A stretch of 24,000 nucleotides of DNA from Kribbella antiqua (GCF_004345665.1 NZ_SLWR01000015.1:169535-193534), one strand, 5' to 3'. Shown: positions 616-18,344, counted from the first letter of the stretch. Translations and numbers: made by a program. The notes: generated by a model from the sequence alone, not told the origin.

Positions 616-619
<4 letters not shown>
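1..619 (-). CDS. ABC transporter permease, osmoprotectant type (glycine betaine/choline/carnitine; OpuBB/OpuCB-like); C-terminal end cut by window edge
   Basis: Not in the ORF track because it runs off the window. My reverse-strand translation from ATG 619..617 gives MTWIGDNLGLIWEQLREHLYLAILPVILGLLISVPLGYVATRFSWLANPLIAFGGVLYSLPSIALFIVLPAILG...SVPAEVRQSAVAVGYGSLHRLVAIDLPIAVP... It has several hydrophobic helices plus the EAA-G-LP type cytoplasmic loop of MetI-like ABC permeases. Its ATG overlaps the stop of the upstream ATPase gene (ATGA at 616..619). GC3 is high. Confidence 0.8.
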
Positions 620-1614
<995 letters not shown>

Positions 1615-1751: not shown

Positions 1752-3407
1752 TCAGGATTCCTGCATCGGAACCCTGACACCCCGTTCCGCGGCCACCTCG
1801 GCCGCCTTGTCGTAGCCGGCGTCGACGTGCCGGATGACACCCATCGCCGGGTCGTTGGTGAGCACCCGCTCCAGCTTCTGCCGGGCCAACTCGGTGCCAT
1901 CAGCAACCGATACCTGGCCGGCATGGATGGACCGGCCGATGCCGACACCGCCGCCGTGGTGGATCGACACCCAGGACGCGCCGCTGGCCACATTCACCAT
2001 TGCGTTCAGCAACGGCCAGTCCGCGATCGCGTCCGAGCCGTCCAGCATTCCTTCGGTCTCCCGGTACGGCGACGCGACGCTTCCGGTGTCGAGGTGGTCC
2101 CGGCCGATCACGATCGGGGCCTCGAGTTCGCCCGAAGCAACCATCTCGTTGAACCGGACACCGGCCTTGTCCCGCTCGCCCTGACCCAGCCAGCAGATCC
2201 GCGCCGGCAGTCCCTGGAAGGCGACCCGCTCGCCGGCCATCTTGATCCACCGGGTCAGGTGCTCGTTGTCCGGGAACAGATCAAGGATCGCCTGATCCGT
2301 CTTGGCGATGTCGGCCGGGTTGCCGGACAGTGCCGCCCACCGGAACGGGCCCTTGCCCTCGCAGAACAACGGCCGGATGTACGCCGGCACGAAGCCGGGG
2401 AACTCGAATGCCCTGGTGTAACCGGCCTTCCGGGCCTCGTCGCGGATCGAGTTGCCGTAGTCGAACACCTCGGAGCCGGCGTCCTGGAAGCCGACCATCG
2501 CCTCGACGTGCTTGGCCATCGACTCCTGCGCCCGCTCGGTGAACCCGGCCGGATCCTTCTCCCGCGCGGTGGTCCAGTCCTCGAACTCGATCCCGATCGG
2601 CAGGTACATCAGCGGGTCGTGCGCCGACGTCTGGTCGGTGACCACATCGATCGGAGCGCCCCGCTGCAAAAGATCCGGGACGATCGTCGCAGCGTTGCCC
2701 AGGACACCGATCGACAACGGCTTCCGCGCCGCCTTCGCCTCCTCGGCCAGTCGCAGCGCTTCGTCCACGGAGGACGCGCGTACGTCGAGATAGCGGTGCT
2801 CGATGCGGCGCTGGATGCGGGACTCGTCGACGTCGATGCAGATCGCCACACCGTCGTTCATCGTCACCGCCAGCGGCTGCGCACCGCCCATGCCGCCGAG
2901 GCCCGCGGTCAGCGTGATGGTGCCGGCCAGCGAGCCGCCGAACTTCTTGTCCGCGACCGCGCCGAACGTCTCGTAGGTGCCCTGCAGAATCCCCTGGGTG
3001 CCGATGTAGATCCACGACCCGGCCGTCATCTGGCCGTACATCGTCAGGCCCATCGCCTCGAGCTTGCGGAATTCCTCCCAGGTGGCCCAGTCGCCGACCA
3101 GGTTGGAGTTGGCGATCAGTACGCGCGGCGCCCACTCGTGCGTTTGCATGACGCCGACCGGGCGGCCCGACTGCACCAGCATCGTCTCGTCGTCCTTCAG
3201 CGTGGTCAGCGTGCGTACCATCGCGTCGAACGAGTTCCAGTCCCGGGCCGCCTTGCCGGAACCGCCGTACACGACCAGTTCGTCGGGGTGCTCGGCGACC
3301 TCGGGGTCGAGGTTGTTCTGCAGCATCCGCAGTGCGGCTTCCTGCTGCCAGCCTCGGGCGGTGAGGGTGGTACCGCGGGGCGCGCGAACGGGACGGGGTC
3401 CGGACAT
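1752..3407 (-). CDS. hutU: Urocanate hydratase (urocanase)
   Basis: Track ORF 1752..3479. The sequence is urocanase-like throughout (..[46 protein letters not shown]..). I place the start at ATG 3407 ([14 protein letters not shown]..), which has a GAAAGG RBS and does not overlap hutH. The longer track start would run into the hutH 3' end. Confidence 0.95.
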
Positions 3408-3423
3408 GGGTGATCCAGCCTTT

Positions 3424-4962
3424 CTAGGACAGTGGGCCGGTGACGGCCTGGACAGCGGACAAGTAGGTGCCGTCGGCAACCAGCCGGACGGAGTGCTCGA
3501 TCTCGGGCGCGAGGTGCCGGTCGGTTCCGGGCCCTTCGACGTACGCGCGCAAGGCGTCCCGTACGGCGGCGGTCGCCGGCGCCGGGGTTAGTGGTGCACG
3601 CAGGTCCAGCGCCCGCGCGGCGGTGAGGATCTCGATCGCCAGGACCCGCTGGAGGCCGTCGATCGCCTTGCGCAACTTGCGCGCGGCAGACCAGCCCATC
3701 GACACGTGGTCCTCCTGCATCGCGCTGCTCGGGATCGAGTCCACACTGGCCGGTACGGCGAGCCGCTTCAGCTCGGACACGATCGCGGCCTGCGTGTACT
3801 GCGCGATCATGTGGCCGCTGTCGACGCCGGGATCGTCGGCCAGGAAGGCGTTCAGCCCATGGTTCCGGGCCACGTCGAGGAAGCGATCGGTACGGCGCTC
3901 ACTGATGCTGGCCACATCCGCGACCGCGATCGCCAGGAAGTCCAGCACGTAACCCACCGGGGCACCGTGGAAGTTGCCGTTCGACTCGACCCGGCCGTCC
4001 GGGAGTACGACGGGATTGTCGATCGCGGCTGCAAGCTCGTACCCGGCGACTGTGGCGGCATGCGCGGCAGTGTCGCGAGCGGCGCCATGCACCTGCGGCG
4101 AACACCTCAAGGAATAGGCGTCCTGGACTCGGTTGCACTCGGGGCCGCGGTGGCTCGCGACGATCGCGCTGTCGGCAAGGATCGCGCGCAGATTGGCGGC
4201 AGCGGAGGCCTGGCCGGGGTGGGGCCGCAGCGTTTGCAGATCCTCGGCGAAGACGCGGTCGGTGCCGAGCTGCGCCTCGACGCTCATCGCGGCGGCGAGG
4301 TCGGCGGTCTTGAAGAGACGGTCGAGGTCGGCCAGCGCGAGCACCAGCATGCCGAGCATGCCGTCGGTGCCGTTGATCAGCGCCAGCCCTTCCTTCTCCG
4401 CCAGCACGACCGGCGTCAAACCGTACGCTCTGAGCGCGTCGCCGGCCTCGAGAAGGTTGCCTTCGGCATCGCGCACCTGCCCTTCGCCGATGATGGCCAG
4501 GGCCACGTGCGAGAGGGGCGCGAGGTCGCCGGAGCAACCGAGGCTGCCGTACTCGCGGACTACCGGAGTCAGCCGGGCGTTGAGGAGTCCGGCGTACGCC
4601 TGAGCGGTCCCGACCTTCACGCCGGTGCGGCCGGTCGCCAAGGTGGAGAGCCGGAGCAGGGCGAGCGCGCGGACGACCTCGGTCTCGACCTCGGGTCCGG
4701 AGCCGGCCGCGTGCGAGCGGACCAGGCTGCGTTGCAGCTGGGCGCGCAACTCCGGCGCGATGTGCCGGGTCGCGAGCGCACCGAATCCGGTCGAGACGCC
4801 GTAATGCGGAGTGTCCGCATGCGCGAGCGCCTCGATCGCCGCCCGCGACTTGGCGATCTCCTCGAGGGCCTGGTCATCGATCCGGACCCTGGCACCATGC
4901 CTCGCCACCGCGACGACATCAGCGGCGGCCAGCGGCCCGACACCTACGATTACTTCGTTCAC
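3424..4962 (-). CDS. hutH: Histidine ammonia-lyase (histidase), MIO-dependent
   Basis: 512 aa with a GTG start at 4962. Colinear HAL motifs: [29 protein letters not shown] (X-Ser-Gly MIO triad, codons 4528..4536 = TGC TCC GGC on the - strand), [32 protein letters not shown]. It sits directly upstream of hutU, 16 nt away. Confidence 0.95.
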
Positions 4963-5016: not shown

Positions 5017-5032
5017 GTCTCAGATCTGAGAC
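5017..5032. promoter_or_regulatory. Perfect 16-bp palindrome GTCTCAGATCTGAGAC in the hutH / GNAT divergent intergenic region; candidate operator (IclR/HutR-type)
   Basis: Read directly from the sequence. It lies 55 nt upstream of the hutH GTG (4962) and 35 nt upstream of the GNAT ATG (5067). It is the only perfect palindrome this long that I found in the 104-bp intergenic region. Confidence 0.5.
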
Positions 5033-5066: not shown

Positions 5067-5963
5067 ATGGTGTTCGAGATCCGGACAGCGGGGCCGGAGG
5101 ATGCGGTAGGTATCGCCCGGGTCTGGGCGGCCGCGATGCCGCAATTGGTGAAAACGGCACGCGGTGTCGAAGCCGAACTGAAGATCGCCCGCAGCCGCAT
5201 CGTGCTGATCGCGGTCGACGGCGAAGACGTGGTGGGTTACGGCAACGTTCACCTCCCTGCTCCAGACGAAACGGCACCAAGGGTGCGGATCGCCGTACAG
5301 GTTCCACCCGCCGTGCGCAGCCGTGGCATCGGCGGCGCTTTGGCCGACGCTGTCATCGCGGAAGCGTCGAACGCAGGCGCCGCGCGGCTGCTGGTCGTCG
5401 TCGGGGACGACGACGAATCGAAGGGGTTCGCGACCCGTCGTGGATTCACCATCAGCCGGCGGATGAGCCACTCGCAGGCCGACCTGACCACCGGGCCCAC
5501 TGCGCTGCCCGCGCCTCACGGTCTGCGGATGGTCGACTACGGAGAGCTGGAGCCGCGGCAATTGTGGCTCGCCGAGGAGGCTGTCCGGCACGACGACCCG
5601 AGCGGACTGTCGACCGGACCGCAGTACGACGAATGGGTGCCGGCCATCTGGCACAACCCCGACCTGCGCCATGACCTCAGCATCGCGGTGCTCGACGGTG
5701 ATCAGGTCGTTTCGTTTGCCAGCACGACCGCGGACCCCGACCGCGGGGTGATCTGGTCGAACCTGACCGGCACGATCCCGGCGTACCGGGGTCGTGGACT
5801 GGCGAAGGTGGCGAAGTCGGTGGCGCTGACGCGGGCGCGGGAGGCCGGGTTCAGTACGGCGTACACCGGGAACGACGCGGCGAACGCGCCGATGCTGGCG
5901 GTGAACGAGTGGCTCGGGTACCGGGCTTCATCGACCGTCTGGGCCGCGGAGAAGACGCTGTGA
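5067..5963 (+). CDS. GNAT-family N-acetyltransferase, two tandem acetyltransferase domains
   Basis: 298 aa. The first half carries the acetyl-CoA loop ..VPPAVRSRGIGGALADAV..; the second half carries ..TIPAYRGRGLAKVAKSVAL.. (Q/R-x-x-G-x-G/A type). High GC3. Substrate unknown. Confidence 0.85.
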   Translation: MVFEIRTAGPEDAVGIARVWAAAMPQLVKTARGVEAELKIARSRIVLIAVDGEDVVGYGNVHLPAPDETAPRVRIAVQVPPAVRSRGIGGALADAVIAEASNAGAARLLVVVGDDDESKGFATRRGFTISRRMSHSQADLTTGPTALPAPHGLRMVDYGELEPRQLWLAEEAVRHDDPSGLSTGPQYDEWVPAIWHNPDLRHDLSIAVLDGDQVVSFASTTADPDRGVIWSNLTGTIPAYRGRGLAKVAKSVALTRAREAGFSTAYTGNDAANAPMLAVNEWLGYRASSTVWAAEKTL

Positions 5964-6195: not shown

Positions 6196-6954
6196 GTGAG
6201 CGGCAACGTTCCCGCCTCGACCCGGACGCTGCGGGTGCTGACCTTCCTGGCGACCCAACCGGGGCCCGTACCGATGGAGCGCATCTCCTCCGCGGTCGGC
6301 CTGCCGCGCTCGTCGACGTACCACTTGCTGAGGGCAATGATCGACGAGGGTTTCGTGGTGCATCTGCCGGAGGAGAAGCGGTACGGCCTCGGCGTCGCCG
6401 CCTTCGAGATCGGCTCGGCGTACCTGCGCCACGATCCGCTCGAACGGCTGGCCCGGCCGCTCCTGGTCCAGCTGGTGGCGGAGGTCGGCCAGACCGCGCA
6501 TCTCGGCGTACTGCATGGTCGGGAGCTCGTCTACCTGCTGAAAGAACAGCCGCCCCGCCCGGTCACACTCGTCACGGATGTCGGCGTACGCCTCCCGGCC
6601 ACCCTCACCGCCTCCGGCCGCGCCCTGCTCGCCGAGCTGCCGCCGGCTCAGGTCCGTGCGCTCTTCCCCAGCCCTGATGCCTTCGTACGACGTACCGACC
6701 GCGGACCGGCCACCCTCACCCAGCTCCGGCGACTCCTGGCCGATGAGAAACGCCAGGGCTACGCCGTCGAGGACTCCTTCATCTCCCCCGGCGTCACCTC
6801 AGTCGCCAGCGCCGCCGTCGACCACGCCGGCCACCCGGTCGCCGCCATCAGCGTCACCTTCCGCACCGACGCCGTCCCCGTCTCCGACCGCCACCTCCTA
6901 GCCCACCGAACCCGCCAAGCCGCCACAGCCCTAACCCGCCGCCTCCACGGCTGA
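6196..6954 (+). CDS. IclR-family transcriptional regulator (candidate hut regulator)
   Basis: 252 aa. N-terminal winged HTH (TLRVLTFLATQPGPVPMERISSAVGLPRSSTYHLLRAMIDEGFV) and an IclR effector domain (..GQTAHLGVLHGRELVYL..TLTASGRALLA..GYAVEDSFISPGVTSVASAV..). It lies two genes from hutHU. Confidence 0.9.
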   Translation: MSGNVPASTRTLRVLTFLATQPGPVPMERISSAVGLPRSSTYHLLRAMIDEGFVVHLPEEKRYGLGVAAFEIGSAYLRHDPLERLARPLLVQLVAEVGQTAHLGVLHGRELVYLLKEQPPRPVTLVTDVGVRLPATLTASGRALLAELPPAQVRALFPSPDAFVRRTDRGPATLTQLRRLLADEKRQGYAVEDSFISPGVTSVASAAVDHAGHPVAAISVTFRTDAVPVSDRHLLAHRTRQAATALTRRLHG

Positions 6955-7039: not shown

Positions 7040-7345
7040 CTACCAGGAAGATTTGGTGATGCCGGGGAGTTCGCCGCGGTGGGCCATGGTGCGGAAGCGG
7101 ACGCGGGAGATGCCGGCTTTGCGGAGGTAGCCGCGGGGGCGGCCGTCGGCGACGTCGCGGTTGCGGACGCGGATCGGGCTGGCGTCGCGCGGGAGCTTCT
7201 GGAGCCTGAGTTGTGCCTCGCCGCGGGCCTCGAAGGACGAGCTTGGGTCCGCGATGATCCGCTTCAGTTCGGCCCGGCACTCGGCGTACAACGCCACCGT
7301 CCGCTTGCGCTGCTCGTTCTTCGCGATCTTGCTCGTCTTCGCCAC
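7040..7345 (-). CDS. rpsN: 30S ribosomal protein S14, long Cys-less (zinc-independent, C-) paralog
   Basis: 101 aa: [31 protein letters not shown]...[41 protein letters not shown]. It has the canonical S14 C-terminus and lacks the CxxC pairs of the 61-aa zinc form. It is adjacent to L33, with the L33 stop abutting this start. Confidence 0.95.
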
Positions 7346-7513
7346 TTAGCGCTCTTCGCGGAAGTCGACGTGCTGGCGGATCGACGGGTCGTACTTGCGC
7401 ATCACCAGCCGGTCCGGGTTGTTGCGCCGGTTCTTCCGGGTCACGTAGGTGAACCCGGTCCCCGCCGTACTCCGCAGCTTGACGATCGGGCGGAGGTCGT
7501 TGCGCTTGGCCAT
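7346..7513 (-). CDS. rpmG: 50S ribosomal protein L33, Cys-less (zinc-independent, C-) paralog
   Basis: Last 55 codons of track ORF 7346..7927: [55 protein letters not shown]. No cysteines. Strong RBS GGAAAGGAAAG lies just upstream of ATG 7513. Confidence 0.95.
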
Positions 7514-7580
7514 GCTTTCCTTTCCTGGGTCACCGCGACCCTCGGTAGCGTTAACGCCGGCCGGGTAGCCGCTATTCCGG

Positions 7581-7615
7581 TTCAGAGTGTACGTTGTGCT
7601 GGTTATCGTTTTCAA
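7581..7615. promoter_or_regulatory. Face-to-face divergent promoter pair for rpmG-rpsN (-) and the COG0523-rpmE2 unit (+)
   Basis: + strand: -35 TTCAGA (7581..7586), 17-nt spacer, -10 TATCGT (7604..7609). - strand: -35 TTGAAA (revcomp of 7610..7615), 18-nt spacer, -10 TACACT (revcomp of 7586..7591). Hexamers were matched by eye to TTGACA/TANNNT. No transcription start data. Confidence 0.4.
7600..7614. promoter_or_regulatory. Zur-box-like element TGGTTATCGTTTTCA
   Basis: 11/15 match to the actinobacterial Zur palindrome core TGAAAATCATTTTCA: the right half is near-consensus (GTTTTCA vs ATTTTCA, TTTTCA intact) and the left half is degenerate. This is the only AT-rich patch in the region. It overlaps the + strand -10 and the - strand -35 proposed above. 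The flanking genes (C- ribosomal paralogs, COG0523) are classic Zur regulon members. Confidence 0.5.
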
Positions 7616-7631
7616 TAAGGCAGGAGTGCTG

Positions 7632-8719
7632 ATGCTTCCGGTGACCTTGCTGACGGGTGTCGACGAGCCGTTCCGCGCCGCCGTCGCGGGCAATCTGCTC
7701 GCCGCCGCGGGACCGGGCGGCGTCCTCGTCGAGTACGACGTGAGCGGTCTGACCGGCGGGTCCGTGGTACGGACCGCGCGTACCGCCGGCGGCGTGATCG
7801 ACCGCGACGTGATCCGGATGGGCCATCCCTGCGTCTCCTGCGCGATGCGCGGTTCGCTGGTCGAACTGCTGGTCAGCATCGCCGCAGTCGAGCGGTACGA
7901 CGCCGCGATCGTGTCCGTCCCCGGCAAGGGGACACGCAGGCGCTGGCCGCGGAGATCGCCGGGGAAAGCGACCTAAAAACCGACGCTGTGATCACCACGG
8001 TCGACACCGGCACGATGGTCGACGACCTGACCGGCGACCAGCTGATCCAGGAGCGCGGCGTCCCGACCGCCGCCGAGGACGGCCGGGCCATCGCCGAGGT
8101 GATCGCCCACCAACTAGAGCACGCCCAAGCGATCGTCCTGAGCAGCGACGACGAGGCAGCCCGCGCTCTGGCTCACGCCCTCAATCCACAGGCGCTCGTC
8201 AAGACCACCCCGGCCGGACTGCTCGGCGTACGGCTGCCTGCTCCAGACGCTGAGCCCGGCTCGATTGTCGCGCCGCTGCACGACGACGGCCCGGTGCAGA
8301 CGCTGATCTGGCAGTCCGACCGCCCGTTCCACCCCGAGCGGCTGTACGACGCCCTGGAAGATCTCGTCGCGGGTACGGCGCGCGGCCGCGGAACCGTCTG
8401 GCTGGCGACCCAACCGCAGAACCGGCTCGGCTGGGACAGCTTCGGCACGAACATCGCGATCGGCGTCCTCGGCCGCTGGCTGGCCGACCTCCCGGTCGAG
8501 CGCTGGCCCTCAGTTGGCCAGGCGCATCAGGCCCGGTCGGCGCTGGAGTGGCACCCGGAGTACGGCGACCGGGCGTCGTACCTCTCGATCACCGGAGTCG
8601 GGCTGAACGTCCGGGAATTACGGGACCGCCTGGATGGTTGTGTCCTTCGTGCGGACGAACCGGCCGGGGCACTGACCGATCCGTTCGCCCCTTATCTGGA
8701 AGGAAGTACGGCTGCATGA
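7632..8719 (+). pseudogene. COG0523/CobW-family putative zinc metallochaperone; reading frame broken near 7919..7922 and nucleotide-binding motifs degenerate
   Basis: The N-terminal part (frame of 7632..7976) reads [23 protein letters not shown]...[14 protein letters not shown]...[10 protein letters not shown], then runs into junk ([17 protein letters not shown]). The other frame reads through from about 7922: [36 protein letters not shown]... It continues into a clear CobW_C domain (..[51 protein letters not shown]). AGGAG RBS at 7622..7626. The stop overlaps the rpmE2 ATG (ATGA, 8716..8719). Confidence 0.7.
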
Positions 8720-8961
8720 AGAACGACATCCACCCCGCGTACCGCCCGGTCGTGTTCCGGGACAAGTCCGCGAACTTCAGCTTCCTGACCGGTTCGACGC
8801 GCGAGAGCACCGAGACCATCGACTGGACCGACGGGAACACCTACCCGGTCGTCGACGTCGAGATCTCGTCCGCCAGCCACCCGTTCTACACGGGCCAGCA
8901 GCGCGTGATGGACACCCAGGGCCGAGTCGAGAAGTTCAAGAAGCGCTACGGGCAAAGCTGA
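8716..8961 (+). CDS. rpmE2: 50S ribosomal protein L31 type B (Cys-less, zinc-independent paralog)
   Basis: 81 aa: [81 protein letters not shown]. It has the L31 signature HPFYTG without the CxxC motif. The ATG overlaps the stop of the upstream gene. Confidence 0.95.
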
Positions 8962-8990: not shown

Positions 8991-9028
8991 GGGGACCTCG
9001 GACATCTGATCAGATGTCCGAGGTCCCC
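8991..9028 (+). terminator. 38-nt perfect palindrome hairpin downstream of rpmE2 (intrinsic terminator without U tract)
   Basis: GGGGACCTCGGACATCTGA|TCAGATGTCCGAGGTCCCC is perfectly self-complementary and starts 30 nt after the L31 stop. A partial third copy of the arm (GGACCTCGGACAC) lies at 8973..8985. Confidence 0.7.
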
Positions 9029-9051: not shown

Positions 9052-9067
9052 GTCTCGGATCTCAGAC
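9052..9067. promoter_or_regulatory. Operator-like site GTCTCGGATCTCAGAC upstream of the HAL-like paralog (14/16 identical to the hutH/GNAT palindrome)
   Basis: Direct comparison with GTCTCAGATCTGAGAC (5017..5032). The differences are at positions 6 and 12 only. It lies 50 nt upstream of GTG 9117. Confidence 0.4.
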
Positions 9068-9116: not shown

Positions 9117-10544
9117 GTGCACGTGGAGCCGGTGGAGATTTCGGGTGTCGGGCTGACGCCGCTGGAGGCTGTCGCGCTCGGGCAGCGGCGGACCGCCGTA
9201 CGGCTGAGCGACGAGGCGCGGAAGCGGATGAGTGAGTCGGCCGCGGCGGTGGCCGAGGCCGCGCGACATCGGCCGGTGTACGGGCGGACGACCGGAGTCG
9301 GCGCCAATCGTGACGTACTGACCTCGGATCCTGAGCACGGCGCCCGGCTGCTCGGGTCGCACTCCACCACCGGTACGACGTCGTACCCGAAGGACGTGGT
9401 CCGGCTCGGGCTGCTGATCCGGGTCAACCAGCTCGCATCCGGCGGCTCCGGGCTGCAGCCCGAGGTCGCCGACGCGATCGTTACCTTGCTCAACGACGAC
9501 GAGCTGCCGGACCTCCACCGAGGCGGCGCGATCGGGACCGGCGACCTCGGCCCACTCGCCGAACTCGGGCTCGCCCTGGGCGATGTCGTCGACGGTACGA
9601 GCGCCCTCCCCTTGCTCTCCAGCAACGCCATCACCTTGGCCGAGTGTTGTCTCGCATACATCGAGGCCGCCACGCTGATCAACGTCGTACCGCTGGTCGG
9701 AGCGCTGTCGCACGTCGCGCTGCGAGGCAATGCCGAGGTGTACGACGTCCGCGTGCACGAAGCGCGGCCGCAGCCGGGTCAGGTCCGGGCGGCGCGGCGG
9801 ATGCGCGGACTGCTGGACAGCCTGCCGATCGTGCCGGCTCGAGTCCAGGATCCCTTTGGGCTCAGGGCGTTCGCGCAGGTGCTCGGTCCGGCCGTCGATC
9901 ATGTGGATGTCCTAGGCAACAGTTTGCGGATCGACCTCAACGCGTCCGCGGAGAACCCGCTGGTGGCCGGCGACACCGTGCTGCACAACGGGAACTGGCA
10001 CGCGATGCCGATCGCGCTCGCCCTCGACTCACTCCGGCTCAGCCTGCACAGCGTCGCCACCCTGTCGACCTCCCGCGTGGCGAATCTGGTCGACCCGGAG
10101 TTCACCGGGCTGAGCCGATTCCTGGCCAGTGGTGCCGAGGCGAGCTCGGGCGTCATGATGATCGAGTACGTCGCCCACGACGCGCTGGCCTCGGTCCGTT
10201 CATCCGCGCAGCCGGCGACCCTTGGTACGGCGACCTTGTCGCGCGGGGCCGAGCACCACGCCAGCTTCGCGCCACAGGCCGCCGTACTGACTGCACAACT
10301 CCTCGATGCGTTGAGAGAAGTCTTGGCCTGCGAGCTGGTGACCGCCGTACGGGCGATTCGCCTTGCAGGCTTGGAACCTGAGGACCTCGCTCCGGCCGCG
10401 GTCGGGCCCTGGCTGGCGGATGCCCTCGCCGCACTGCCCGGCGATCTGGCGGACCGGTCGTTGCGGGAAGACCTGGAGATCGCCCGCGGTCTGCTCACGC
10501 AGTGGGGCGACCGCCAGGTCGAGCATCCCGCCGAATCGGGCTAG
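9117..10544 (+). CDS. HAL/PAL (aromatic amino acid lyase) superfamily protein lacking the canonical MIO triad; function unknown
   Basis: 475 aa, colinear with the HutH in this window. Motifs: VYGRTTGVG, GSHSTTG, GGAI-GTG-DLGPLAE (codons 9534..9542 GGG ACC GGC in place of X-Ser-Gly), LLSSNAITL, QDPFGLRA (Phe codon 9855..9857 in place of the catalytic Tyr), NGNWHAMP, AEHHASF. High GC3 and uninterrupted. The start is uncertain among GTG 9117, 9123 and 9132. Confidence 0.85.
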   Translation: MHVEPVEISGVGLTPLEAVALGQRRTAVRLSDEARKRMSESAAAVAEAARHRPVYGRTTGVGANRDVLTSDPEHGARLLGSHSTTGTTSYPKDVVRLGLLIRVNQLASGGSGLQPEVADAIVTLLNDDELPDLHRGGAIGTGDLGPLAELGLALGDVVDGTSALPLLSSNAITLAECCLAYIEAATLINVVPLVGALSHVALRGNAEVYDVRVHEARPQPGQVRAARRMRGLLDSLPIVPARVQDPFGLRAFAQVLGPAVDHVDVLGNSLRIDLNASAENPLVAGDTVLHNGNWHAMPIALALDSLRLSLHSVATLSTSRVANLVDPEFTGLSRFLASGAEASSGVMMIEYVAHDALASVRSSAQPATLGTATLSRGAEHHASFAPQAAVLTAQLLDALREVLACELVTAVRAIRLAGLEPEDLAPAAVGPWLADALAALPGDLADRSLREDLEIARGLLTQWGDRQVEHPAESG

Positions 10545-11701
10545 AGCTGCTTGAGATCGAAGGCCGCGGCCATTGCCTTGAAGCCTTCGGCGTTCGGGTG
10601 CAGGTGGTCGCCGACGTCGTACGCCGGCAGCATCTTCGACGGGTTCGCCGGGTCGCGGACTGCCTTGTCGAAGTCGGCGACCGCGTCGTACTCACCGGAC
10701 GTCCGGATCCACGTGCTCAGCGCCTGCCGGTCCGCTTCGCCCGCGGGCGTGTAGTAGCCCGCACCTTCGTACGGCGTCAGCGTCGCGCCGATCACCTTGA
10801 GCCCAGCCTGATGCGCCCGCTGGATGAACTGCCGATGTACGGCGATCAGGTCTGCCGGCTCTGTGGCGCCTCTGCTGTTGCCGATGTCGTTGATGCCTTC
10901 CAGCAATACGACGGTCCGTACGCCGGCCTGCCCGATCACGTCCCGGTCGAACCGCGCCAGCGTCGAGTCACCCGCCGTACCGGCGTTCTGCAGCAGGCGG
11001 TTGCCGCTGATGCCGGCGTTGAGTACGCCGAGCTCGCGGAAGGCCGGCTGGGCCAGCAGGCGATCGGCGAGCTGGTCCGGGTAGCGCAGGTTCTGGTCGA
11101 TCGGCGAGACCACACCATCGGTGATCGAGTCCCCGAACAACACCACCGAGCCGCGCACCCGGCTCTTCACGTCAACGCCCTCGATGATGTACCGAGCCAT
11201 CCCCGGGATCGCCTGGTACGACGACCCGTTGCCTGCCGCCTGGTCACCAGCGGCGGAGAAGCCGGTCGCGTACCTGGTCGGGTGCTGAGTCAGCGGACCG
11301 GTCGGGCCCGGGAAGTACGTGCTGATCACCAGGTCGGTGTCATCCGGTACGGCGATGCGCACCGGGTCGGACACCCACTCAGCACCTACTGGGATCGTGA
11401 CCGACGGGCGCCCGCCGAACAGCACCGGAACCAGCGTGGCCGGGTCGAGTGTCGGCGTACCCGCCAAGTCAGCACCTCGCGGCGTGACCGTCACCTTGCC
11501 GACGACGAGCGGAGTCGTCCCGTAGACGTTGGAGAGCCGCAACCGCAGCTCAGGCCCACCGACTGATAGATGGGCAACCTGGCGGAGCGTGGTGTCGGTG
11601 ACGCCAGTCGCTGACAGCCCCGTCGTACCGGGCGGGGTAACGGCAACGGCCCAGCTGCCGACCCAATCGGCCGGAGTAGACGCCGAAGCTGCCGGCGTCA
11701 C
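10541..11701 (-). CDS. SGNH/GDSL-family hydrolase (esterase/lipase-like) with N-terminal beta-rich domain
   Basis: 386 aa. Block I VVLFGDSITDGV (catalytic Ser), block III GINDIG region, block V DHLHPN (Asp-x-x-His). About 170 aa N-terminal extension. GTG start at 11701, with a TGA stop codon immediately upstream in frame. 4-nt convergent overlap with the HAL-like gene. Confidence 0.85.
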   Translation of the reverse strand: MTPAASASTPADWVGSWAVAVTPPGTTGLSATGVTDTTLRQVAHLSVGGPELRLRLSNVYGTTPLVVGKVTVTPRGADLAGTPTLDPATLVPVLFGGRPSVTIPVGAEWVSDPVRIAVPDDTDLVISTYFPGPTGPLTQHPTRYATGFSAAGDQAAGNGSSYQAIPGMARYIIEGVDVKSRVRGSVVLFGDSITDGVVSPIDQNLRYPDQLADRLLAQPAFRELGVLNAGISGNRLLQNAGTAGDSTLARFDRDVIGQAGVRTVVLLEGINDIGNSRGATEPADLIAVHRQFIQRAHQAGLKVIGATLTPYEGAGYYTPAGEADRQALSTWIRTSGEYDAVADFDKAVRDPANPSKMLPAYDVGDHLHPNAEGFKAMAAAFDLKQL

Positions 11702-11753
11702 TCACCGCCACCGTCACTCGGGTACGGTGCTCTTGATCGGGCAGAGAAGGGGC

Positions 11754-12722
11754 GTGGGTGTGACGACGAACGTAGAAGGCTTCGATCGGCTGGTCGAACC
11801 GTTCCGTTCGGAGTTGCTGGCGTACTGCTATCGGATGCTCGGCACGGTTCACGACGCTGAGGACTTGGTTCAGGACACGTACCTGAGGGCGTGGCGGGCG
11901 CGGGAGCAGTACGACGAGTCCCGTAGTTCGCTCCGGACCTGGCTCTACCGGATCGCGACGAACGCCTGCCTGACCGCATTGAAGGGCCATGGCCGTCGGC
12001 CATTGCCGTCGGGGTTGGTGGCCGAGTCGGAGCCGCTCGCTCCGCTGGTCCTGGGAGATAACGTGCCCTGGCTTCAGCCGTTGCCGGACTCGTTGCTGAC
12101 CGGCGGTGATCCGGCCGGGGCCGTGATCGGCCGCAGCAGTCTGCGTCTGGCGTTTGCCGCCGCCCTGCAGCACCTGTCGGCGCGTCAGCGCGGTGCACTG
12201 ATCCTGCGTGACGTGCTCAGCTTCTCCGCGGCCGAGGCGGCGGAGATCCTCGGCACCACCGTCGTGTCGGTGAACAGTTCGCTACAGCGGGCGCGTACCC
12301 GGCTGAAGGAGATCGGGATCCAGCACGAAGATGTCAGCGAGCCGCTCGAGGCCGAGCAGCGAGCCTGGGTCGAGCGCTACATGAAAGCGTTCATGAACGC
12401 CGACTTCGAGGGGCTCAAGCGGCTGCTCACCGAGGACGTGCTCATGGAGATGCCGCCGATGCTCAACTGGTTCACCGGGCCCGGCAACTACGGCCTGTTC
12501 ATGGAATGGGTCTTCGCGAAGGCCGGAACGGACTGGCAGCTGAAGATCGTCGCCGCCAACGGCCAGCCCGGTTTCGCCGCATACCGGCGCGTCGGTGGCG
12601 GATACGAGCTGCACACGCTCCAGATCTTCACGGTCACCGCCGACGGCATCAGCCGGAATTCGGTGTTCCAAGATTCCGGGGTCTTCGCGGCCTTCGGTCT
12701 GGCGGCCAGACTCGACGCCTAG
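11754..12722 (+). CDS. ECF-type RNA polymerase sigma-70 factor with fused C-terminal NTF2/SnoaL-like domain (ECF41/ECF56, SigJ/SigG-like architecture)
   Basis: Region 2: FDRLVEPFRSELLAYCYRMLGTVHDAEDLVQDTYLRAWRA..LRTWLYRIATNACL. Region 4: LSARQRGALILRDVLSFSAAEAAEILGTTVVSVNSSLQRAR. A ~130 aa tail follows (..VERYMKAFMNADFEGLKRLLTEDVLMEMPP..NGQPGFAAY..LQIFTV..). I chose the GTG 11754 start (or 11760) because of the GAAGGGG RBS. The track's 11529 start overlaps the SGNH gene. Confidence 0.85.
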   Translation: MGVTTNVEGFDRLVEPFRSELLAYCYRMLGTVHDAEDLVQDTYLRAWRAREQYDESRSSLRTWLYRIATNACLTALKGHGRRPLPSGLVAESEPLAPLVLGDNVPWLQPLPDSLLTGGDPAGAVIGRSSLRLAFAAALQHLSARQRGALILRDVLSFSAAEAAEILGTTVVSVNSSLQRARTRLKEIGIQHEDVSEPLEAEQRAWVERYMKAFMNADFEGLKRLLTEDVLMEMPPMLNWFTGPGNYGLFMEWVFAKAGTDWQLKIVAANGQPGFAAYRRVGGGYELHTLQIFTVTADGISRNSVFQDSGVFAAFGLAARLDA

Positions 12723-13000
12723 GGACTTGGCAACGTCGGGCGTCCAGTGCGGCCGGGGTGGTGGCTGGTCACGGACCTGGCGTGGGGGACCTGTCGGTGT
12801 CTGTTCCGACTGGACGCCGTACCGCCAGGAGTGCGGCTGAGCCTGTAGGCCGGCGAGGGCGTCGAAGGCGCCACGGGAGCCGTGGATCAGTACGCCTCAA
12901 CATCTTTTTCGCGGGCGCGATGAGTTCCGGCTCCGCCGACGGTATGTATTCCCGAGTTCGCCGGAATATCCCGGGCGAACCGATCACAAGGGAGAATCCG

Positions 13001-13411
13001 ATGTCAGACAGTCGTGCGGCAGACGAGGCCGCCATCCAGGCCGTACTGGTTGACTCCTACAAAGCGTGGGAAGCTGGCGACGCTGCCGGCATGGTCGCCA
13101 ACTACACCGCGGACGCGACCGCCATCATCCCCGGCTCGCTCCGCGACAGCCGGGAGGTAATCCGCGAGAACATGGCCCTGGCCTTCGATGGGCCACTCAA
13201 GGGCAGCTCGACCTCCAACAAGCAGCTCAGCCTCCGCTTCGTCGGCAGGGACGCCGCGATCGTCATCAGCGAATCCGGCATCCTGTTCCCCGGCCAGACC
13301 GAGGTTCCGGACACCGGCAAGGTGAACGCGACCTGGGTTTTCGAGAAGCGGGACGGCCAGTGGCTGATCGCCGCCTATCACAACAGCCCGGTGCTGGCGC
13401 CGGCGCAGTGA
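13001..13411 (+). CDS. SgcJ/EcaC-family (DUF4440/SnoaL-like, NTF2 fold) protein
   Basis: 136 aa: MSDSRAADEAAIQAVLVDSYKAWEAGDAAGMVANYTADATAIIPG...WVFEKRDGQWLIAAYHNSP. This is the typical NTF2-like pattern. AAGGGAGA RBS at 12988..12995. The long track ORF (12506) is an artefactual upstream extension. Confidence 0.8.
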   Translation: MSDSRAADEAAIQAVLVDSYKAWEAGDAAGMVANYTADATAIIPGSLRDSREVIRENMALAFDGPLKGSSTSNKQLSLRFVGRDAAIVISESGILFPGQTEVPDTGKVNATWVFEKRDGQWLIAAYHNSPVLAPAQ

Positions 13412-14501: not shown

Positions 14502-15179
14502 TCACGGTTCGAAGCGGTAGCCCATTCCTGGTTCGGTGAGGAGGTGTTTTGGGCGGGCCGGATCGGGCTCCAGCTTGCGGCGAAGCTGGCCCATGTAGAA
14601 GCGGAGGTTGCCGCTCGCGGTCTCGTAGCCGGGGCCCCAGACCTCGGTGAGCAGCTGGCGTTGGGACATGAGCTTGCCGGGGTGCCGGACCAGGACCTCC
14701 AGCAGATGCCATTCGGTCGGCGTCAGGCGGATGTCCTCGCCGGACTCCAACGTCACGCGCTTGGCCGCCAGGTCGACCGTCGCGCCACCGACCGTGACGA
14801 CCGGCTGATCCTGGGCGATGTTGCTCCGCCGCAGTACGGCGCGCATCCGGGCGAGCAGCTCGTCGATGCCGAACGGCTTGGTCACGTAGTCGTCCGCGCC
14901 GGCGTCCAGCGCCTCGACCTTGTCCGTTTGGTCGGTACGCCCGGACAGCACGAGGATCGGCGCCTCGGTCCAGCCGCGCAGGCCGCGAATCACGTCGACG
15001 CCGTCGAAGTCCGGCAGTCCGAGGTCGAGGATGACCAGCTCCGGCGGGTTCTGCGCCGCCACCTTCAACGCCGCCGTACCACTGCCGGCCAGGTGGACCT
15101 CATACCCGCGCGCCTTCAGGTTGATCTGCAGAGCCCGCACGATCTGCGGCTCGTCATCAACCACGAGGACCCTCGTCAT
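14502..15179 (-). CDS. kdpE: Two-component response regulator KdpE (OmpR/PhoB family)
   Basis: 225 aa. Receiver domain (VLVVDDEPQI..ILDLGLPDFDG..DDYVTKPF) plus a winged-helix output domain (..LTPTEWHLLEVLVRHPGKLMSQRQLL..YMGQLRRKLE..GMGYRF). ATGA overlap with the kdpD stop. Confidence 0.95.
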   Translation of the reverse strand: MTRVLVVDDEPQIVRALQINLKARGYEVHLAGSGTAALKVAAQNPPELVILDLGLPDFDGVDVIRGLRGWTEAPILVLSGRTDQTDKVEALDAGADDYVTKPFGIDELLARMRAVLRRSNIAQDQPVVTVGGATVDLAAKRVTLESGEDIRLTPTEWHLLEVLVRHPGKLMSQRQLLTEVWGPGYETASGNLRFYMGQLRRKLEPDPARPKHLLTEPGMGYRFEP

Positions 15180-17740
15180 TCGCGTACCTCTCGTTCGCGG
15201 GCACCAGGGACCGGCGCGTCGGCTGGTTTGAGTGTTGCAGTCGGGATTGCGACCACCATCGTCAGGCCGCCACCAGGAGTGTCCTCCGGCTGCAGCGTGC
15301 CGTTCATCGCCTCGGTGAGACCGCGCGCGAGCGCGAGTCCGAGCCCCACCCCGACCGTGTTGTCCGTATCGCCGAGCCGCTGGAACGGCGCGAAGACCCG
15401 ATCCCGGTCCTCCCGCGGAATCCCCGGCCCACGGTCGACCACCCGCACCTCCACCGAGTCCCCGAGCGCACTCCCGGTCACCAGCGGCGGCCGCCCGTCC
15501 GGCGAATACCGGATCGCGTTCGCCACCAGGTTCGCGATCACCCGCTCCAGCAACGCGGGATCCGCCTCGACCAGCGGCAGCGTGTGCGGAATGTCCACAG
15601 TCACGTTGTCGCCGTCGTCACCGAGCTCAGCCAGTACGCCGGGTATCACCTCGTCCAGCGCCATCGGTCGCGTGAAGATGGGCAGTACGCCTGCCTGCAG
15701 CCGACTCAGGTCGAGCAGGTTGTCGACCAACCGCGAGAGGCGATCGAGCGACTCGTCCGCCGTCTCCAGCAGCTCGGCCCGCTCGGATTCGCTCCAGTCG
15801 ACGTCGTCGCTACGCAGGCTCGTCACCGACGCCTTCGCCGACGCCAATGGCGAGCGGAGGTCATGGCCGACCGCCCGGAGCAACGCCGTACGGAGTTTGT
15901 CCGCTTCGGCCAGGGGCTTCGCTTCCGCGGCGGCCTCGCTCAGGCGGGCCTTGTCCACCAGCGCGGCGGCGTGTGCGGCGAAGGCGCCGACCAGGCGGCG
16001 CTCGTCCGCGGCAAGTTGGCGACCTTGCAGGACGAGGACCAGATCGTCGCGGCCAGGGATCTCCGCATCGCCCTCCTCCGGTCGCGCGCAGGTCGTCGTA
16101 CCGGCGCTGGCCAGGGGTCGCCAGACCTCGGTCAGCTCGTCGTTGTCCACCCGCTCCATCAGGCACGCACCGGTCATCCCAAAGGCCTCGCGAACCCGTT
16201 CCAGCAGGGCAGGCAGCGCGGTCTCACCACGCAGAACAGACCCGGCCAGCGTCGCCAGCGTCTCGGACTCGGCCGCGGCACGGGCCGCCTGCCTGGTCCG
16301 TCTGGCCGCCCGGTCGACCACCGAGCTCACCATCGCTGCGACCAGCACGAAGATCAGCAGCGCCAGCACATTGTTGAAGTCGGAGATCGTGAACGTGCGT
16401 GTCGGCGGAGTGAAGAAATAGTTCAGTACGACGGAGCCGACGACCGCAGTCATCATCGCCGGCCACAGTCCACCCACCAGCGCCACGACGACCACGGCGA
16501 GCAGGAAGGCCAGCACATTGCTGGTCAGGTTGAGGCTGTCCCCACCGAACCCGAGTACCACGGCAAGGACGGGCTGCAGAACGAGGCCGAGCACGAAGCC
16601 CTGGATCTTGCGCCGCCGCGACAGGCTGCCGCGCAACCGCGGCAGCCGGCCGCGGCCCATCTCGGCATGGGTGACGATGTGAACGTCGATGTCGCCGGAG
16701 TCGCGGATCGTGCTGGCGCCAATGCCCGGACCGGAGACGAGCGACGACACCCGGGACCGGCGGCTGCCGCCGAGGACCAACTGGGTGGCGTTCTCGGCCC
16801 GGGCGAAGGACAGCAGGGCCTCGGGGACGTTGTCCCCCACGACCTGGTGGTACGAACCGCCGAGGCTCTCGACGAGGTTGCGCTGTTCGGCGAGCCGCTT
16901 CGGGTTGGCGCCGGTCAGGCCGTCGGAGCGGGCGACGTGGACTGCGAGCAGGTCACCGCCGGACGACCTGGCGGCGATGCGAGCGGCACGCCTGATCAGG
17001 GTCTCGCCCTCGGGACCGCCGGTCAGCGCGACCACGACGCGTTCCCGGGCTTCCCAGGTCGAGTCGATGTCATGTTGAGCGCGGTACTGCTGCAGGCCGG
17101 CGTCCACCCGGTCGGCGAGCCAGAGCAGTGCGAGTTCGCGCAACGCGGACAGGTTGCCGACCCGGAAGTAGTTGCCCAGGGCAGCATCGACCTTGTCGGC
17201 GGCGTAGACGTTGCCGTGCGCCATCCGCCGGCGCAACGCCTCGGGCGTCATGTCGACCAGCTCGATCTGGTCGGCGGCCCGGACCACCCGATCCGGGATC
17301 TTCTCCTGCTGCGGTACGCCGGTGATCTTCTCGACCACGTCGTTGATCGACTCGAGGTGCTGGATGTTCACCGTCGAGATCACGTCGATCCCGGCGGCCA
17401 GCACCTCCTCGATGTCCTGCCAGCGCTTCTCGTTCCGGCTGCCCGGCACGTTGGTGTGCGCCATCTCGTCGATCAGCGCGACCTCGGGCCGGCGCGCCAG
17501 TACGGCGTCCAGGTCCATCTCGGTGAAGCTGGCGCCGCGGTAGTCCATGATCTGCCGCGGCACCAGCTCCAGACCCTCGATCATCGCGGCGGTGTGCGGC
17601 CGGCCGTGGGTCTCGACGAAGCCGATCACCACGTCGGTGCCACGGTCCAGCCGTCGCTGACCCTCGCCCAGCATCTTGTAGGTCTTCCCGACGCCGGGCG
17701 CGGCACCCAGGTAAATCCGCAGATGCCCGCGATTACTCAT
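15176..17740 (-). CDS. kdpD: Sensor histidine kinase KdpD
   Basis: 854 aa. N-terminal KdpD domain with P-loop (GAAPGVGKTY), Usp-like segment, four TM helices, GAF-like region, HisKA (AVGHDLRSPL) and HATPase_c (..DRGPGIP..GLGLALARG..). Confidence 0.95.
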   Translation of the reverse strand: MSNRGHLRIYLGAAPGVGKTYKMLGEGQRRLDRGTDVVIGFVETHGRPHTAAMIEGLELVPRQIMDYRGASFTEMDLDAVLARRPEVALIDEMAHTNVPGSRNEKRWQDIEEVLAAGIDVISTVNIQHLESINDVVEKITGVPQQEKIPDRVVRAADQIELVDMTPEALRRRMAHGNVYAADKVDAALGNYFRVGNLSALRELALLWLADRVDAGLQQYRAQHDIDSTWEARERVVVALTGGPEGETLIRRAARIAARSSGGDLLAVHVARSDGLTGANPKRLAEQRNLVESLGGSYHQVVGDNVPEALLSFARAENATQLVLGGSRRSRVSSLVSGPGIGASTIRDSGDIDVHIVTHAEMGRGRLPRLRGSLSRRRKIQGFVLGLVLQPVLAVVLGFGGDSLNLTSNVLAFLLAVVVVALVGGLWPAMMTAVVGSVVLNYFFTPPTRTFTISDFNNVLALLIFVLVAAMVSSVVDRAARRTRQAARAAAESETLATLAGSVLRGETALPALLERVREAFGMTGACLMERVDNDELTEVWRPLASAGTTTCARPEEGDAEIPGRDDLVLVLQGRQLAADERRLVGAFAAHAAALVDKARLSEAAAEAKPLAEADKLRTALLRAVGHDLRSPLASAKASVTSLRSDDVDWSESERAELLETADESLDRLSRLVDNLLDLSRLQAGVLPIFTRPMALDEVIPGVLAELGDDGDNVTVDIPHTLPLVEADPALLERVIANLVANAIRYSPDGRPPLVTGSALGDSVEVRVVDRGPGIPREDRDRVFAPFQRLGDTDNTVGVGLGLALARGLTEAMNGTLQPEDTPGGGLTMVVAIPTATLKPADAPVPGAREREVRE

Positions 17741-17752
17741 GCTTCCACTCTC

Positions 17753-18331
17753 TCAGAGTGCGGCCAGGGCGTTGTTGAGCGTCACGACGTTCACGCGAGG
17801 CTCACCGAGGAACCCGAGCGTCCGGCCCTTGGTGTTCTCCTTGACGAGCTTCTGGACTTCAGCCACGGACAACCCACGTTCCCGAGCGACCCGATCCACC
17901 TGAATTGCGGCGTACGCCGGGCTGATGTCCGGGTCGAGGCCGCTACCGCTGGCGGTCACCGCGTCCGGCGGCACCTGGGAGGGATCGACGCCGTTGAGCT
18001 CCGCGACCTCCTGCCGCCGCTGGTCGATCAGCTTGACCAGCTCCGGACTGTTCGGCCCGTACTGTGAGGCCGCGCTGCCCATCGCGTTGTAGTCGACCGC
18101 GGACGGCCGAGTCTGGAACCACTGCTTGCCGTAGGTCTGGCCGATGAGGTCGGACGCGACGTCCTTGCCGTTGACCTTGACGATCGAGCCGTTGGCGTTG
18201 CCGTGGAACAGCGCCTGTGCCGCGCCGGTCATCACCAAGGGATAGATGATGCCGAGGGCAACGGTGAAGACCAGTAGGGCCCGGATTGCGACCCCGAACT
18301 GCCGGACCGAGCCGGGGAGATTGCTTGCCAT
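17753..18331 (-). CDS. kdpC: Potassium-transporting ATPase subunit KdpC
   Basis: KdpC-like throughout (..LVFTVALGIIYPLVMTGAAQALF..ASGSGLDPDISPAYA..). I prefer ATG 18331 (MASNLPG.., AAAGG RBS) over the track's TTG at 18337. Confidence 0.93.
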   Translation of the reverse strand: MASNLPGSVRQFGVAIRALLVFTVALGIIYPLVMTGAAQALFHGNANGSIVKVNGKDVASDLIGQTYGKQWFQTRPSAVDYNAMGSAASQYGPNSPELVKLIDQRRQEVAELNGVDPSQVPPDAVTASGSGLDPDISPAYAAIQVDRVARERGLSVAEVQKLVKENTKGRTLGFLGEPRVNVVTLNNALAAL

Positions 18332-18344
18332 GACCAACTACCTT

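Follow-up and report, generated by a model that had tools for sequence, protein, structure and literature searches.

Histidine ammonia-lyase (HAL) and those of its relatives that use the electrophilic cofactor methylidene-imidazolone (MIO) make that cofactor by cyclisation of an X-Ser-Gly triad in a loop, which reads G-[ACST]-S-G-D-L in MIO enzymes. The same family (Pfam PF00221) includes enzymes known to work without MIO: ergothionase, histidine-betaine lyase and N-pi-methyl-histidine-betaine lyase (bioRxiv 10.1101/2025.08.13.670108; bioRxiv 10.64898/2026.04.22.720169). Here we describe a gene of this superfamily in a 24,000-nucleotide stretch of Kribbella antiqua DNA (GCF_004345665.1 NZ_SLWR01000015.1:169535-193534; "the window" means this whole stretch). 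The gene belongs to a group, the T-clade, that we would class with the known MIO-independent HAL-superfamily lyases as a very large variant, so far uncharacterised, and in this genome the gene is probably wired into histidine utilisation.

The described MIO-free enzymes differ in substrate. Ergothionases include Td_ETL of Treponema denticola (PDB 6s7j) and SO_3057, and there is also one from Burkholderia sp. HME13. Swoo_3913 of Shewanella woodyi cleaves histidine betaine with a kcat of 18 per second and is inactive with L- and D-histidine (bioRxiv 10.1101/2025.08.13.670108), and SO_3299 is an N-pi-methyl-histidine-betaine lyase (bioRxiv 10.64898/2026.04.22.720169). The Shewanella lyases are periplasmic enzymes that serve anaerobic respiration through their coupling to flavocytochrome urocanate reductases. 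In Td_ETL, Lys384 binds the thiolate and is essential for ergothionase activity, and histidine-betaine lyases have Asn or Gln at this position (both points from the two preprints: bioRxiv 10.1101/2025.08.13.670108; 10.64898/2026.04.22.720169). An electrophilic cofactor is dispensable in these lyases because trimethylamine leaves well enough. Our literature search on MIO-independent, hercynine or trimethylammonia lyases found only these two Shewanella preprints.

The gene in question is the following.

9117..10544, plus strand: MIO-less HAL-superfamily lyase gene ("T-clade"), GTG to TAG, 475 amino acids

An alternative GTG start lies at 9123, and at its end the lyase gene shares 4 nt with the stop region of a GDSL lipase gene (10541..11701, minus strand). 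The G+C content of the reading frame is 0.75/0.50/0.85 at codon positions one, two and three, and that of the window is 68%. The translation contains the motifs GGAIGTGDLGPLAE, QDPFGLRA and NGNWHAMP. An earlier reading of the window, made from the sequence alone (the sequence-only reading), had already pointed to this reading frame, its motifs and the codons GGG ACC GGC (9534..9542) and TTT (9855..9857), all of which proved exact when we re-read the sequence.

The protein matches Pfam PF00221 (Lyase_aromatic) with E = 1.7e-95, and a phmmer search of the PDB matched it to HAL structures at 1e-40 to 1e-42. All eight of its NCBIfam matches are under the curated cut-offs, including those to TIGR01225 (hutH; 242 vs 539 bits) and NF006871 (259 vs 524 bits). 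The structure prediction suggested in the sequence-only reading gave a HAL fold: the AlphaFold2 model has a predicted local distance difference test score (pLDDT) of 88.6 and a predicted template modelling score (pTM) of 0.91. When this model was compared with the PDB using Foldseek, the best match was an MIO-free enzyme, ergothionase 6s7j (E = 7.6e-25, TM-score 0.88), with HALs marginally behind; HAL, tyrosine aminomutase (TAM) and phenylalanine ammonia-lyase (PAL) structures match at TM-scores of 0.84-0.88. The Kribbella lyase has no signal peptide.

The feature that sets this protein apart is its loop at the MIO position.

9534..9542, plus strand: G140-T141-G142, the loop at the MIO position, codons GGG ACC GGC

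The sequence-only reading described this as Gly-Thr-Gly standing in place of the MIO triad. It is correct that there is no X-Ser-Gly, but the change is not an in-place substitution: compared with G-[AC]-S-G-D, the loop is one residue shorter. BLASTP, phmmer against the PDB, MAFFT and hmmalign concur on this deletion, and none of the four methods finds a Ser-Gly at or beside the MIO position, nor do close orthologues carry X-S-G. In the alignments, G140 pairs with the Gly before the triad, T141 with the MIO Ser and G142 with the MIO Gly, and Cys143 of the window's own HutH, the first residue of its triad, has no counterpart. The Kribbella lyase also has a deletion of ~30 amino acids after the loop. 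This segment varies in length across the clade, with insertions of 100-190 amino acids in some members (P0135, P0138, P0140 and others), and no extra Pfam domains were found in these long members.

To describe the clade, we searched 1.84 billion cluster representatives (50% identity) with a profile and took clade statistics from the best 150. The shortened loop, as G-T-[G/A]-D, is present in 135 of these, and the canonical G-A-S-G-D proteins in the search all scored at or below 322 bits. Among the 135 clade representatives, the central loop residue is Thr in 129 (the rest being I3, V2 and C1) and the third is G105/A28/S2, so approximately a fifth of the clade, with Ala at the third position, lacks the Gly needed for cyclisation. 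Other Kribbella proteins are the nearest relatives, with identities of up to 94%. In a MAFFT alignment, G-T-G-D or something close to it is found in every full-length homologue down to 45% identity; the source genera include Streptomyces, Saccharopolyspora, Nocardioides and Actinophytocola.

A genome scan found relatives in at least 556 species-representative genomes, with motif and clade membership checked in 80 loci. The named members we examined are all Actinomycetota, including Acidimicrobiia and Nakamurella, and the database labels seen for them are "histidine ammonia-lyase" or "aromatic amino acid ammonia-lyase". Purifying selection on the lyase is strong and the gene shows no decay, as the sequence-only reading had supposed: dN/dS (the ratio of nonsynonymous to synonymous substitution rates) against Kribbella orthologues is 0.05-0.10. 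A strain-specific lesion or pseudogene is ruled out by this ratio and by the loop being kept in 135/150 representatives across a very large Actinomycetota clade.

The shortened loop, the Thr in place of Ser and a Ser in place of HAL Asn195 (see below) support the earlier statement that this Thr cannot give the methylidene, and the Kribbella lyase is predicted to be unable to form MIO. One could still propose a histidine ammonia-lyase that works through a Thr-derived ethylidene-imidazolone or with no cofactor at all. Its linkage to hut genes would suit such an enzyme, as would an invariant Asp143 (the counterpart of HAL Asp145) and Phe or Trp at the Phe329 position; we take Asp145 and Phe329 to be needed for MIO formation in HAL, based on mutant structures 1GK3 and 1GK2. 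However, the loop is one residue shorter, Ala replaces the cyclising Gly in 21% of the clade, the Thr itself gives way to Ile, Val or Cys in a few members, Ser stands at the position of Asn195, which contacts MIO, and Kribbella retains a canonical HutH 4 kb away. Furthermore, the MIO-free Swoo_3913 has no histidase activity, and the S143T mutant of HAL is reportedly inactive. We therefore consider an ammonia-lyase of this kind extremely improbable.

The rest of the active site is largely kept. Residue columns were counted with hmmalign over the 135 clade representatives, where gaps lower some denominators.

9279..9281, plus strand: Tyr55, equivalent to HAL Tyr53, the beta-proton base; 121/121 in the clade
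His82: equivalent to HAL His83; 118/122 in the clade
Asp143: equivalent to HAL Asp145; 135/135 in the clade
Gln244: equivalent to HAL Gln277; 132/134 in the clade
Arg250: equivalent to HAL Arg283; 134/134 in the clade
Asn280: equivalent to HAL Asn313; 134/134 in the clade
Glu379: equivalent to HAL Glu414; 129/129 in the clade
9855..9857, plus strand: Phe247, at the HAL Tyr280 position; codon TTT

Tyr55 also aligns with Tyr54 of ergothionase, and Y55, Q244, R250, N280, H82 and E379 align with Tyr77, Gln308, Arg314, Asn339, His117 and Glu467 of Swoo_3913. The sequence-only reading had listed scaffold residues as retained, and the clade agrees: the Tyr53, His83, Asn313, Arg283 and Glu414 equivalents are 97-100% conserved. 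Its other residue claims need qualification. Phe247 does occupy the Tyr280 position, described there as Phe replacing the catalytic Tyr, but the proton base is Tyr53, which is kept as Tyr55. That reading also proposed checking orthologues for conservation of both G-T-G and Phe. The former is conserved, but the latter is not: clade representatives have Y68/F57/L7/I2 at the Tyr280 position, and 6s7j and Swoo_3913 each have Leu there, so Phe247 marks a relaxed position and does not define the clade. NGNWH, given as a further paralog difference, is present, but its Trp is confined to the Kribbella lineage, the clade counts being F122/W7. Two other changes are clade-wide. HAL Asn195, which contacts MIO, is Ser168 in the lyase, with Ser in 129/135 clade representatives vs Asn in 10/10 canonical representatives, and Lys384 of Td_ETL is Tyr351, with Tyr in 124/130.

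These residues bear on whether the protein is an enzyme at all. The sequence-only reading proposed a non-MIO function, such as a binding protein, a regulator or different chemistry. Different chemistry is favoured by the MIO-free lyase signature described below. The retention of every substrate-binding residue and of the equivalent of Tyr53, the catalytic base, speaks against a binding protein or a regulator. A non-catalytic HAL-fold protein could be a sensor or binder of histidine or urocanate, or could modulate HutH in mixed tetramers: it has no cofactor, it appears co-regulated with hutH in the same Kribbella cluster, and HAL active sites are assembled from several subunits. Yet the proton-abstracting Tyr is invariant and six substrate contacts are kept over >130 divergent clusters, which would be unexpected in a mere binder. 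Many members also occur in contexts with no hutH nearby, often beside a transporter, and the characterised MIO-free homologues are efficient enzymes, so we regard a non-catalytic role as unlikely.

To compare the lyase with its described relatives, we aligned it with the window HutH, the 6s7j sequence and the Swoo_3913 sequence in a four-way MAFFT alignment. The loop deletion is common to the lyase (AIG-TGDL), ergothionase (SIG-EGDI) and Swoo_3913 (SVG-LSDI), whereas HutH has SLGCSGDL. The Asn195-to-Ser change is likewise shared, with LLSSNA in the lyase, IVSCNA in ergothionase and ILSNNA in Swoo_3913 vs LINGTD in HutH. Past the catalytic Tyr, the lyase and both MIO-free enzymes have GVGxN[RK]D (GVGWNKD in ergothionase) where HutH has TGFGAL, and EDHAS is found in all three but not in HutH. 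All three also have a residue other than Tyr at position 280, namely Phe in the lyase and Leu in the other two. A "DPxFT-GL" segment was considered as a second shared indel and rejected: P. putida HAL aligns there without a gap, so only a motif similarity remains.

Swoo_3913 resembles the lyase in keeping the Tyr/His/Gln/Arg/Asn/Glu set, in having a neutral residue at the position of ergothionase Lys384 and in its product, urocanate, which suits the hut linkage of the Kribbella gene. It differs in sequence (~22% identity), in its neighbour-joining (NJ) group, in its loop (Leu vs Thr) and in having no ~30-amino-acid deletion after the loop. Its activity has been measured, whereas the lyase is known from sequence. 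The Shewanella enzymes are periplasmic, while the Kribbella lyase is tied to cytoplasmic HutU and HutH and to an IclR regulator. Ergothionase is 26% identical to the lyase and differs at Lys384 (Tyr351) and in the loop (Glu vs Thr); its partner is a thiourocanate hydratase, while HutU is linked to the lyase. HutH (P. putida HAL 1B8F and the window HutH) shares the fold, and the colinear paralogy asserted in the sequence-only reading is borne out by BLASTP (31% identity over ~470 residues). The lyase resembles HutH in its Tyr53, His83, Gln277, Arg283, Asn313, Glu414 and Asp145 equivalents and in its upstream palindrome, and is unlike it in lacking X-Ser-Gly, in its shorter loop and in the Asn195-to-Ser and Tyr280-to-Phe changes.

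In an unrooted NJ tree, built with no PAL or tyrosine ammonia-lyase (TAL) outgroup, the T-clade has 100% bootstrap support, the canonical HALs including the window HutH 91%, and a group of Td_ETL, Swoo_3913 and P0256 93%. This topology suggests that the T-clade either forms a third MIO-free lineage of its own or is deeply sister to the known one. P0256 is a 520-amino-acid PF00221 protein from JGI metagenomes that also has no MIO triad; its loop is G-V-A-D and it groups with ergothionase and Swoo_3913, not with the Thr clade, and metagenomes therefore hold more MIO-free lineages.

The genes around the lyase indicate which pathway it may serve. In the window, a histidine-utilisation (hut) cluster and two copies of a palindrome are found upstream of it.

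2..1614, minus strand: ProV-type ATP-binding cassette (ABC) transporter (betaine/proline/choline) beside hutU; ATPase 616..1614, permease 2..742, cut by the window edge
1752..3479, minus strand: hutU, urocanate hydratase; TIGR01228 923 bits vs cut-off 375, with Pfam matches
3424..4962, minus strand: canonical hutH with a Cys-Ser-Gly MIO triad and QEDHVSMG; TIGR01225 641 bits vs cut-off 539
5017..5032, no strand: second palindrome copy GTCTCAGATCTGAGAC, in the promoter region shared by the divergent hutH and GNAT-IclR genes, 55 bp upstream of hutH
5067..5963, plus strand: double-GNAT acetyltransferase gene between hutH and the IclR gene, kept in all Kribbella loci
6196..6954, plus strand: IclR-family regulator (Pfam HTH_IclR and IclR_C), candidate hut regulator and palindrome binder
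9052..9067, no strand: palindrome GTCTCGGATCTCAGAC, 50 bp upstream of the lyase start, candidate IclR operator

The hutH gene had served the sequence-only reading as an internal reference, and its 641-bit match makes it a real one, on the minus strand, a detail left unstated there. The hutU-encoded protein does not reach the cut-offs of the models for thiourocanate hydratase and S-methyl thiourocanate hydratase. The transporter ATPase scores 307 bits against TIGR01186 (proV; cut-off 327), and the best match of the permease is a choline ABC permease. The IclR protein is 50-58% identical to IclR proteins encoded beside the lyase or beside hut operons in Nocardioides, Pseudonocardia and Actinomycetospora. 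The GNAT protein has a weak similarity to mycothiol synthase MshD (41 bits), and its gene shares the palindrome-bearing promoter region.

The 16-bp palindrome GTCTCnnATnnGAGAC thus occurs twice in the window, upstream of the lyase and of hutH. In the aligned upstream regions of 11 Kribbella orthologues it is the sole conserved block, as GTCTCGGATCCGAGAC. Across 42 loci it lies upstream of the lyase, at 49-51 bp everywhere except in one Kribbellaceae metagenome-assembled genome (MAG; L049), where the distance is 86 bp, and it lies 55-73 bp upstream of hutH in all 36 of the hutH-bearing loci. Several Kribbella species have the whole arrangement contiguously: operator-lyase, IclR and GNAT on the opposite strand, then operator-hutH-hutU. 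The literature we searched contained no description of this palindrome. We infer from these sequence patterns that the IclR protein would bind the palindrome, which would place the lyase in the Kribbella hut regulon, and the lyase appears to be co-regulated with the histidine-degradation genes.

The linkage extends beyond Kribbella. In Pseudonocardia nematodicida and Actinomycetospora termitidis (loci L071 and L061), whose lyases carry G-T-G and Phe, an IclR gene adjoins an operon of hutU, an amidohydrolase gene, hutF, hutI and, last, the lyase. The palindrome GTCTCnnATnnGAGAC is present in the IclR|hutU intergenic region of both loci. In L049, it separates the lyase from a ProV-OpuAC-hutF-hutI unit that runs divergently. 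In Nocardioides eburneiflavus, an IclR orthologue (50% identity) is divergent from the lyase, an OpuC-type ABC transporter follows the lyase, and a related palindrome, GTCTGGGATC[CG]C[GA]GAC, is found upstream of both lyase and transporter. Transporters of the OpuAC family adjoin the lyase in L048 (a MAG), L049, L051 (Saccharothrix) and L082. By sequence, the binding protein of L082 (11153-12073) belongs to the betaine-binding family, and its nearest relatives of solved structure are the betaine and other quaternary-amine binders ProX, OsmF and EgtUC.

The hydratases in these clusters help to narrow the substrate. Those linked to the lyase are true HutU proteins, at 923 and 908 bits vs a cut-off of 375, and both are under the thiourocanate hydratase cut-off of 930. 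This matters for the possibility that the lyase is an ergothionase, converting ergothioneine to thiourocanate and trimethylamine like Td_ETL and SO_3057. The MIO-free signature matches, 6s7j is the best structural match, and Actinomycetota make ergothioneine (PMC7653990). However, the lyase is not an ergothionase by the Lys384 criterion, because Tyr351 (Tyr in 124/130) takes the place of the thiolate-binding residue. The HutU scores also point away from a thiourocanate product, and no ErtC, ErtD or ErtE-type genes were seen beside the lyase. An ergothionase is therefore an improbable identity for this protein.

On balance, and with only a slight preponderance of confidence, we favour a cytoplasmic MIO-independent HAL-fold enzyme that would produce urocanate from a histidine betaine, probably hercynine. 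In this proposal, hercynine (histidine betaine) would be imported or made internally. Gln244, Arg250 and Asn280 would hold its carboxylate, and His82 and Glu379 its imidazole, as in HAL. Tyr55 would then take the beta-proton, and the quaternary trimethylammonium alpha-substituent could leave without an electrophilic cofactor, giving urocanate and trimethylamine, with the urocanate passing into the HutU pathway. Urocanate is suggested as the product because of the linkage to hut operons and to the hut operator. By analogy, hercynine is the most likely substrate and the most economical candidate, because the nearest characterised activity acts on it, because the Lys needed for ergothioneine is absent and the linked hydratase is a true HutU, and because ergothioneine, which actinobacteria synthesise, is made from hercynine and yields it on oxidation. 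Substrate, catalysis and physiological role are thus things we infer for the T-clade lyase by comparison with described relatives.

Several observations weigh against this proposal. It does not account for the near-invariant loop Thr (95%), where ergothionase has Glu and the histidine-betaine lyase Leu. Overall similarity does not separate the candidates: the lyase scores 134 vs 134 bits (BLAST) and 234 vs 246 bits (profile) against MIO-free enzymes and HutH, respectively. The shared deletion and motifs favour common descent with Td_ETL and Swoo_3913, but with equal scores and a T-clade that is separate in the NJ tree, the shared features could be convergent upon MIO loss. The transporters are also ambiguous. 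The histidine transporter HutXWV of Sinorhizobium falls within the OpuAC/ProV superfamily, so a transporter of this family is no proof of a betaine substrate, and the aromatic cage of A. fulgidus ProX, with the residues we take it to comprise, seems only partly kept in the L082 binding protein. Finally, gene neighbourhoods differ between genera: in Streptomyces, Amycolatopsis, Sciscionella and Saccharopolyspora, the lyase neighbours are an RpiR(SIS) regulator and a major facilitator superfamily (MFS) transporter of the Sugar_tr family, there are no hut genes within 8 kb of the Streptomyces, Amycolatopsis and Saccharopolyspora lyases, and many other neighbourhoods are uninformative.

Some of these points would suit a lyase for another histidine-derived or imidazole substrate, such as mono- or dimethyl-histidine, N-pi-methyl-histidine betaine or a compound with some other leaving group, perhaps differing by subclade. 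The imidazole and carboxylate binders are kept, yet the loop Thr is unlike that of both known enzymes; SO_3299 indicates that specificity shifts readily in this class (bioRxiv 10.64898/2026.04.22.720169); and the RpiR and MFS context of several genera is unrelated to hut. An N-methyl-amino-acid-oxidase-like gene adjoins the lyase in L061. On the other side, the hut linkage points to a urocanate product, which narrows the substrates, and no conserved neighbour enzyme suggests a specific alternative. We rate such a substrate as doubtful, though less so than an ergothionase or a non-catalytic protein. The L061 gene itself (A. termitidis, 10017..11198, minus strand, downstream of the lyase) is of the MTOX/SoxB family with scores under the cut-offs, and an XRE/PuuR-like regulator gene (9365..10006, minus strand) is also found downstream. 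Together, these two genes may hint at N-methylated amino acid metabolism.

A more novel reading is that the T-clade is an apparently Actinomycetota-wide cytoplasmic enzyme with a substrate or chemistry new to the superfamily. It could be a dedicated salvage lyase by which ergothioneine producers would bring hercynine, a dead end of ergothioneine oxidation, back into central metabolism via Hut, or it could cleave an unrecognised alpha-substituted histidine; either way the Thr, unlike Glu or Leu, would have a mechanistic part. We offer this tentatively, as less likely than not.

While the MIO-free class was known already, the size of this clade, its misannotation, the hut coupling and a testable link to hercynine and ergothioneine are new. 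The misannotation is systematic: relatives are encoded in at least 556 species-representative genomes, and the named database members we saw are labelled as histidine or aromatic amino acid ammonia-lyases, although the protein is almost certainly neither. The clade also provides a third, very large and diverse natural data set on MIO loss, covering the loop deletion, the Asn195-to-Ser change and relaxation at Tyr280, and the conserved 16-bp palindrome with its putative IclR partner is a directly testable regulatory unit. If hercynine or a related betaine is indeed cleaved, this would be the first cytoplasmic, aerobic, hut-coupled catabolism of histidine betaine. It would also tie the Hut pathway to ergothioneine turnover in the bacteria that chiefly produce this compound, and soil actinomycetes would join the known sources of trimethylamine.

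Alternative ribosomal protein genes of the zinc-independent type (7040..8961) directly precede the lyase.

7040..7345, minus strand: S14, alternative ribosomal protein
~7346..7510, minus strand: L33, alternative ribosomal protein
7632..8719, plus strand: CobW_C / Mrf-like gene, frameshifted in the window
8716..8961, plus strand: L31 (rpmE2), alternative ribosomal protein
8991..9028, plus strand: perfect 19+19 nt palindrome GGGGACCTCGGACATCTGA|TCAGATGTCCGAGGTCCCC, a terminator-like hairpin between rpmE2 and the lyase promoter

This adjacency raises the possibility that the lyase belongs to a Zur zinc-starvation response. The lyase comes directly after the S14, L33, CobW_C/Mrf-like and L31 genes, the adjacency is kept in ~40 Kribbella loci, and the link between ZigA and HutH in Acinetobacter would be a precedent. 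However, a hairpin with a perfect 19-bp stem lies between rpmE2 and the lyase, the lyase has its own conserved palindrome in common with hutH, no Zur consensus was found in the window at up to 3 mismatches, and the adjacency is gone outside Kribbella. We rejected a zinc link through the cobW-like gene and rpmE2 on these four grounds and consider it very unlikely. The hairpin in its extended fold has a free energy of -63 kcal/mol (z = -8.6) and no T-run, and a partial direct copy, GGACCTCGGACA, lies just upstream of it. In the divergent promoter region of the ribosomal genes, TATTGAAAACGATAACCA (minus strand, ~7597..7615) has 4 mismatches to the actinobacterial Zur consensus.

The CobW_C/Mrf-like gene is read in two frames, the N-terminal part to ~7925 and the remainder from ~7931, because 1 nt is missing near 7920-7925 by comparison with other Kribbella genomes, in which the gene is intact (368 amino acids). 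The frameshift could be a sequencing error or mark a pseudogene. The best NCBIfam match of the intact orthologue is MRF, the ribosome-hibernation-factor-recruiting GTPase (160 bits, under the cut-off), and its P-loop is degenerate.

Beyond the lyase, the window contains a gene for a sigma factor of the extracytoplasmic function (ECF) type with a C-terminal SnoaL-like domain (11529..12722, plus strand), overlapped by a SnoaL-like reading frame (12506..13411, plus strand). Further downstream is a complete kdpA-kdpB-kdpC-kdpD potassium uptake cluster (15176..22189, minus strand; Pfam KdpA, E1-E2 ATPase, KdpC, KdpD and histidine kinase). Many Kribbella loci have this cluster downstream of the lyase, to which it seems to bear no relation.

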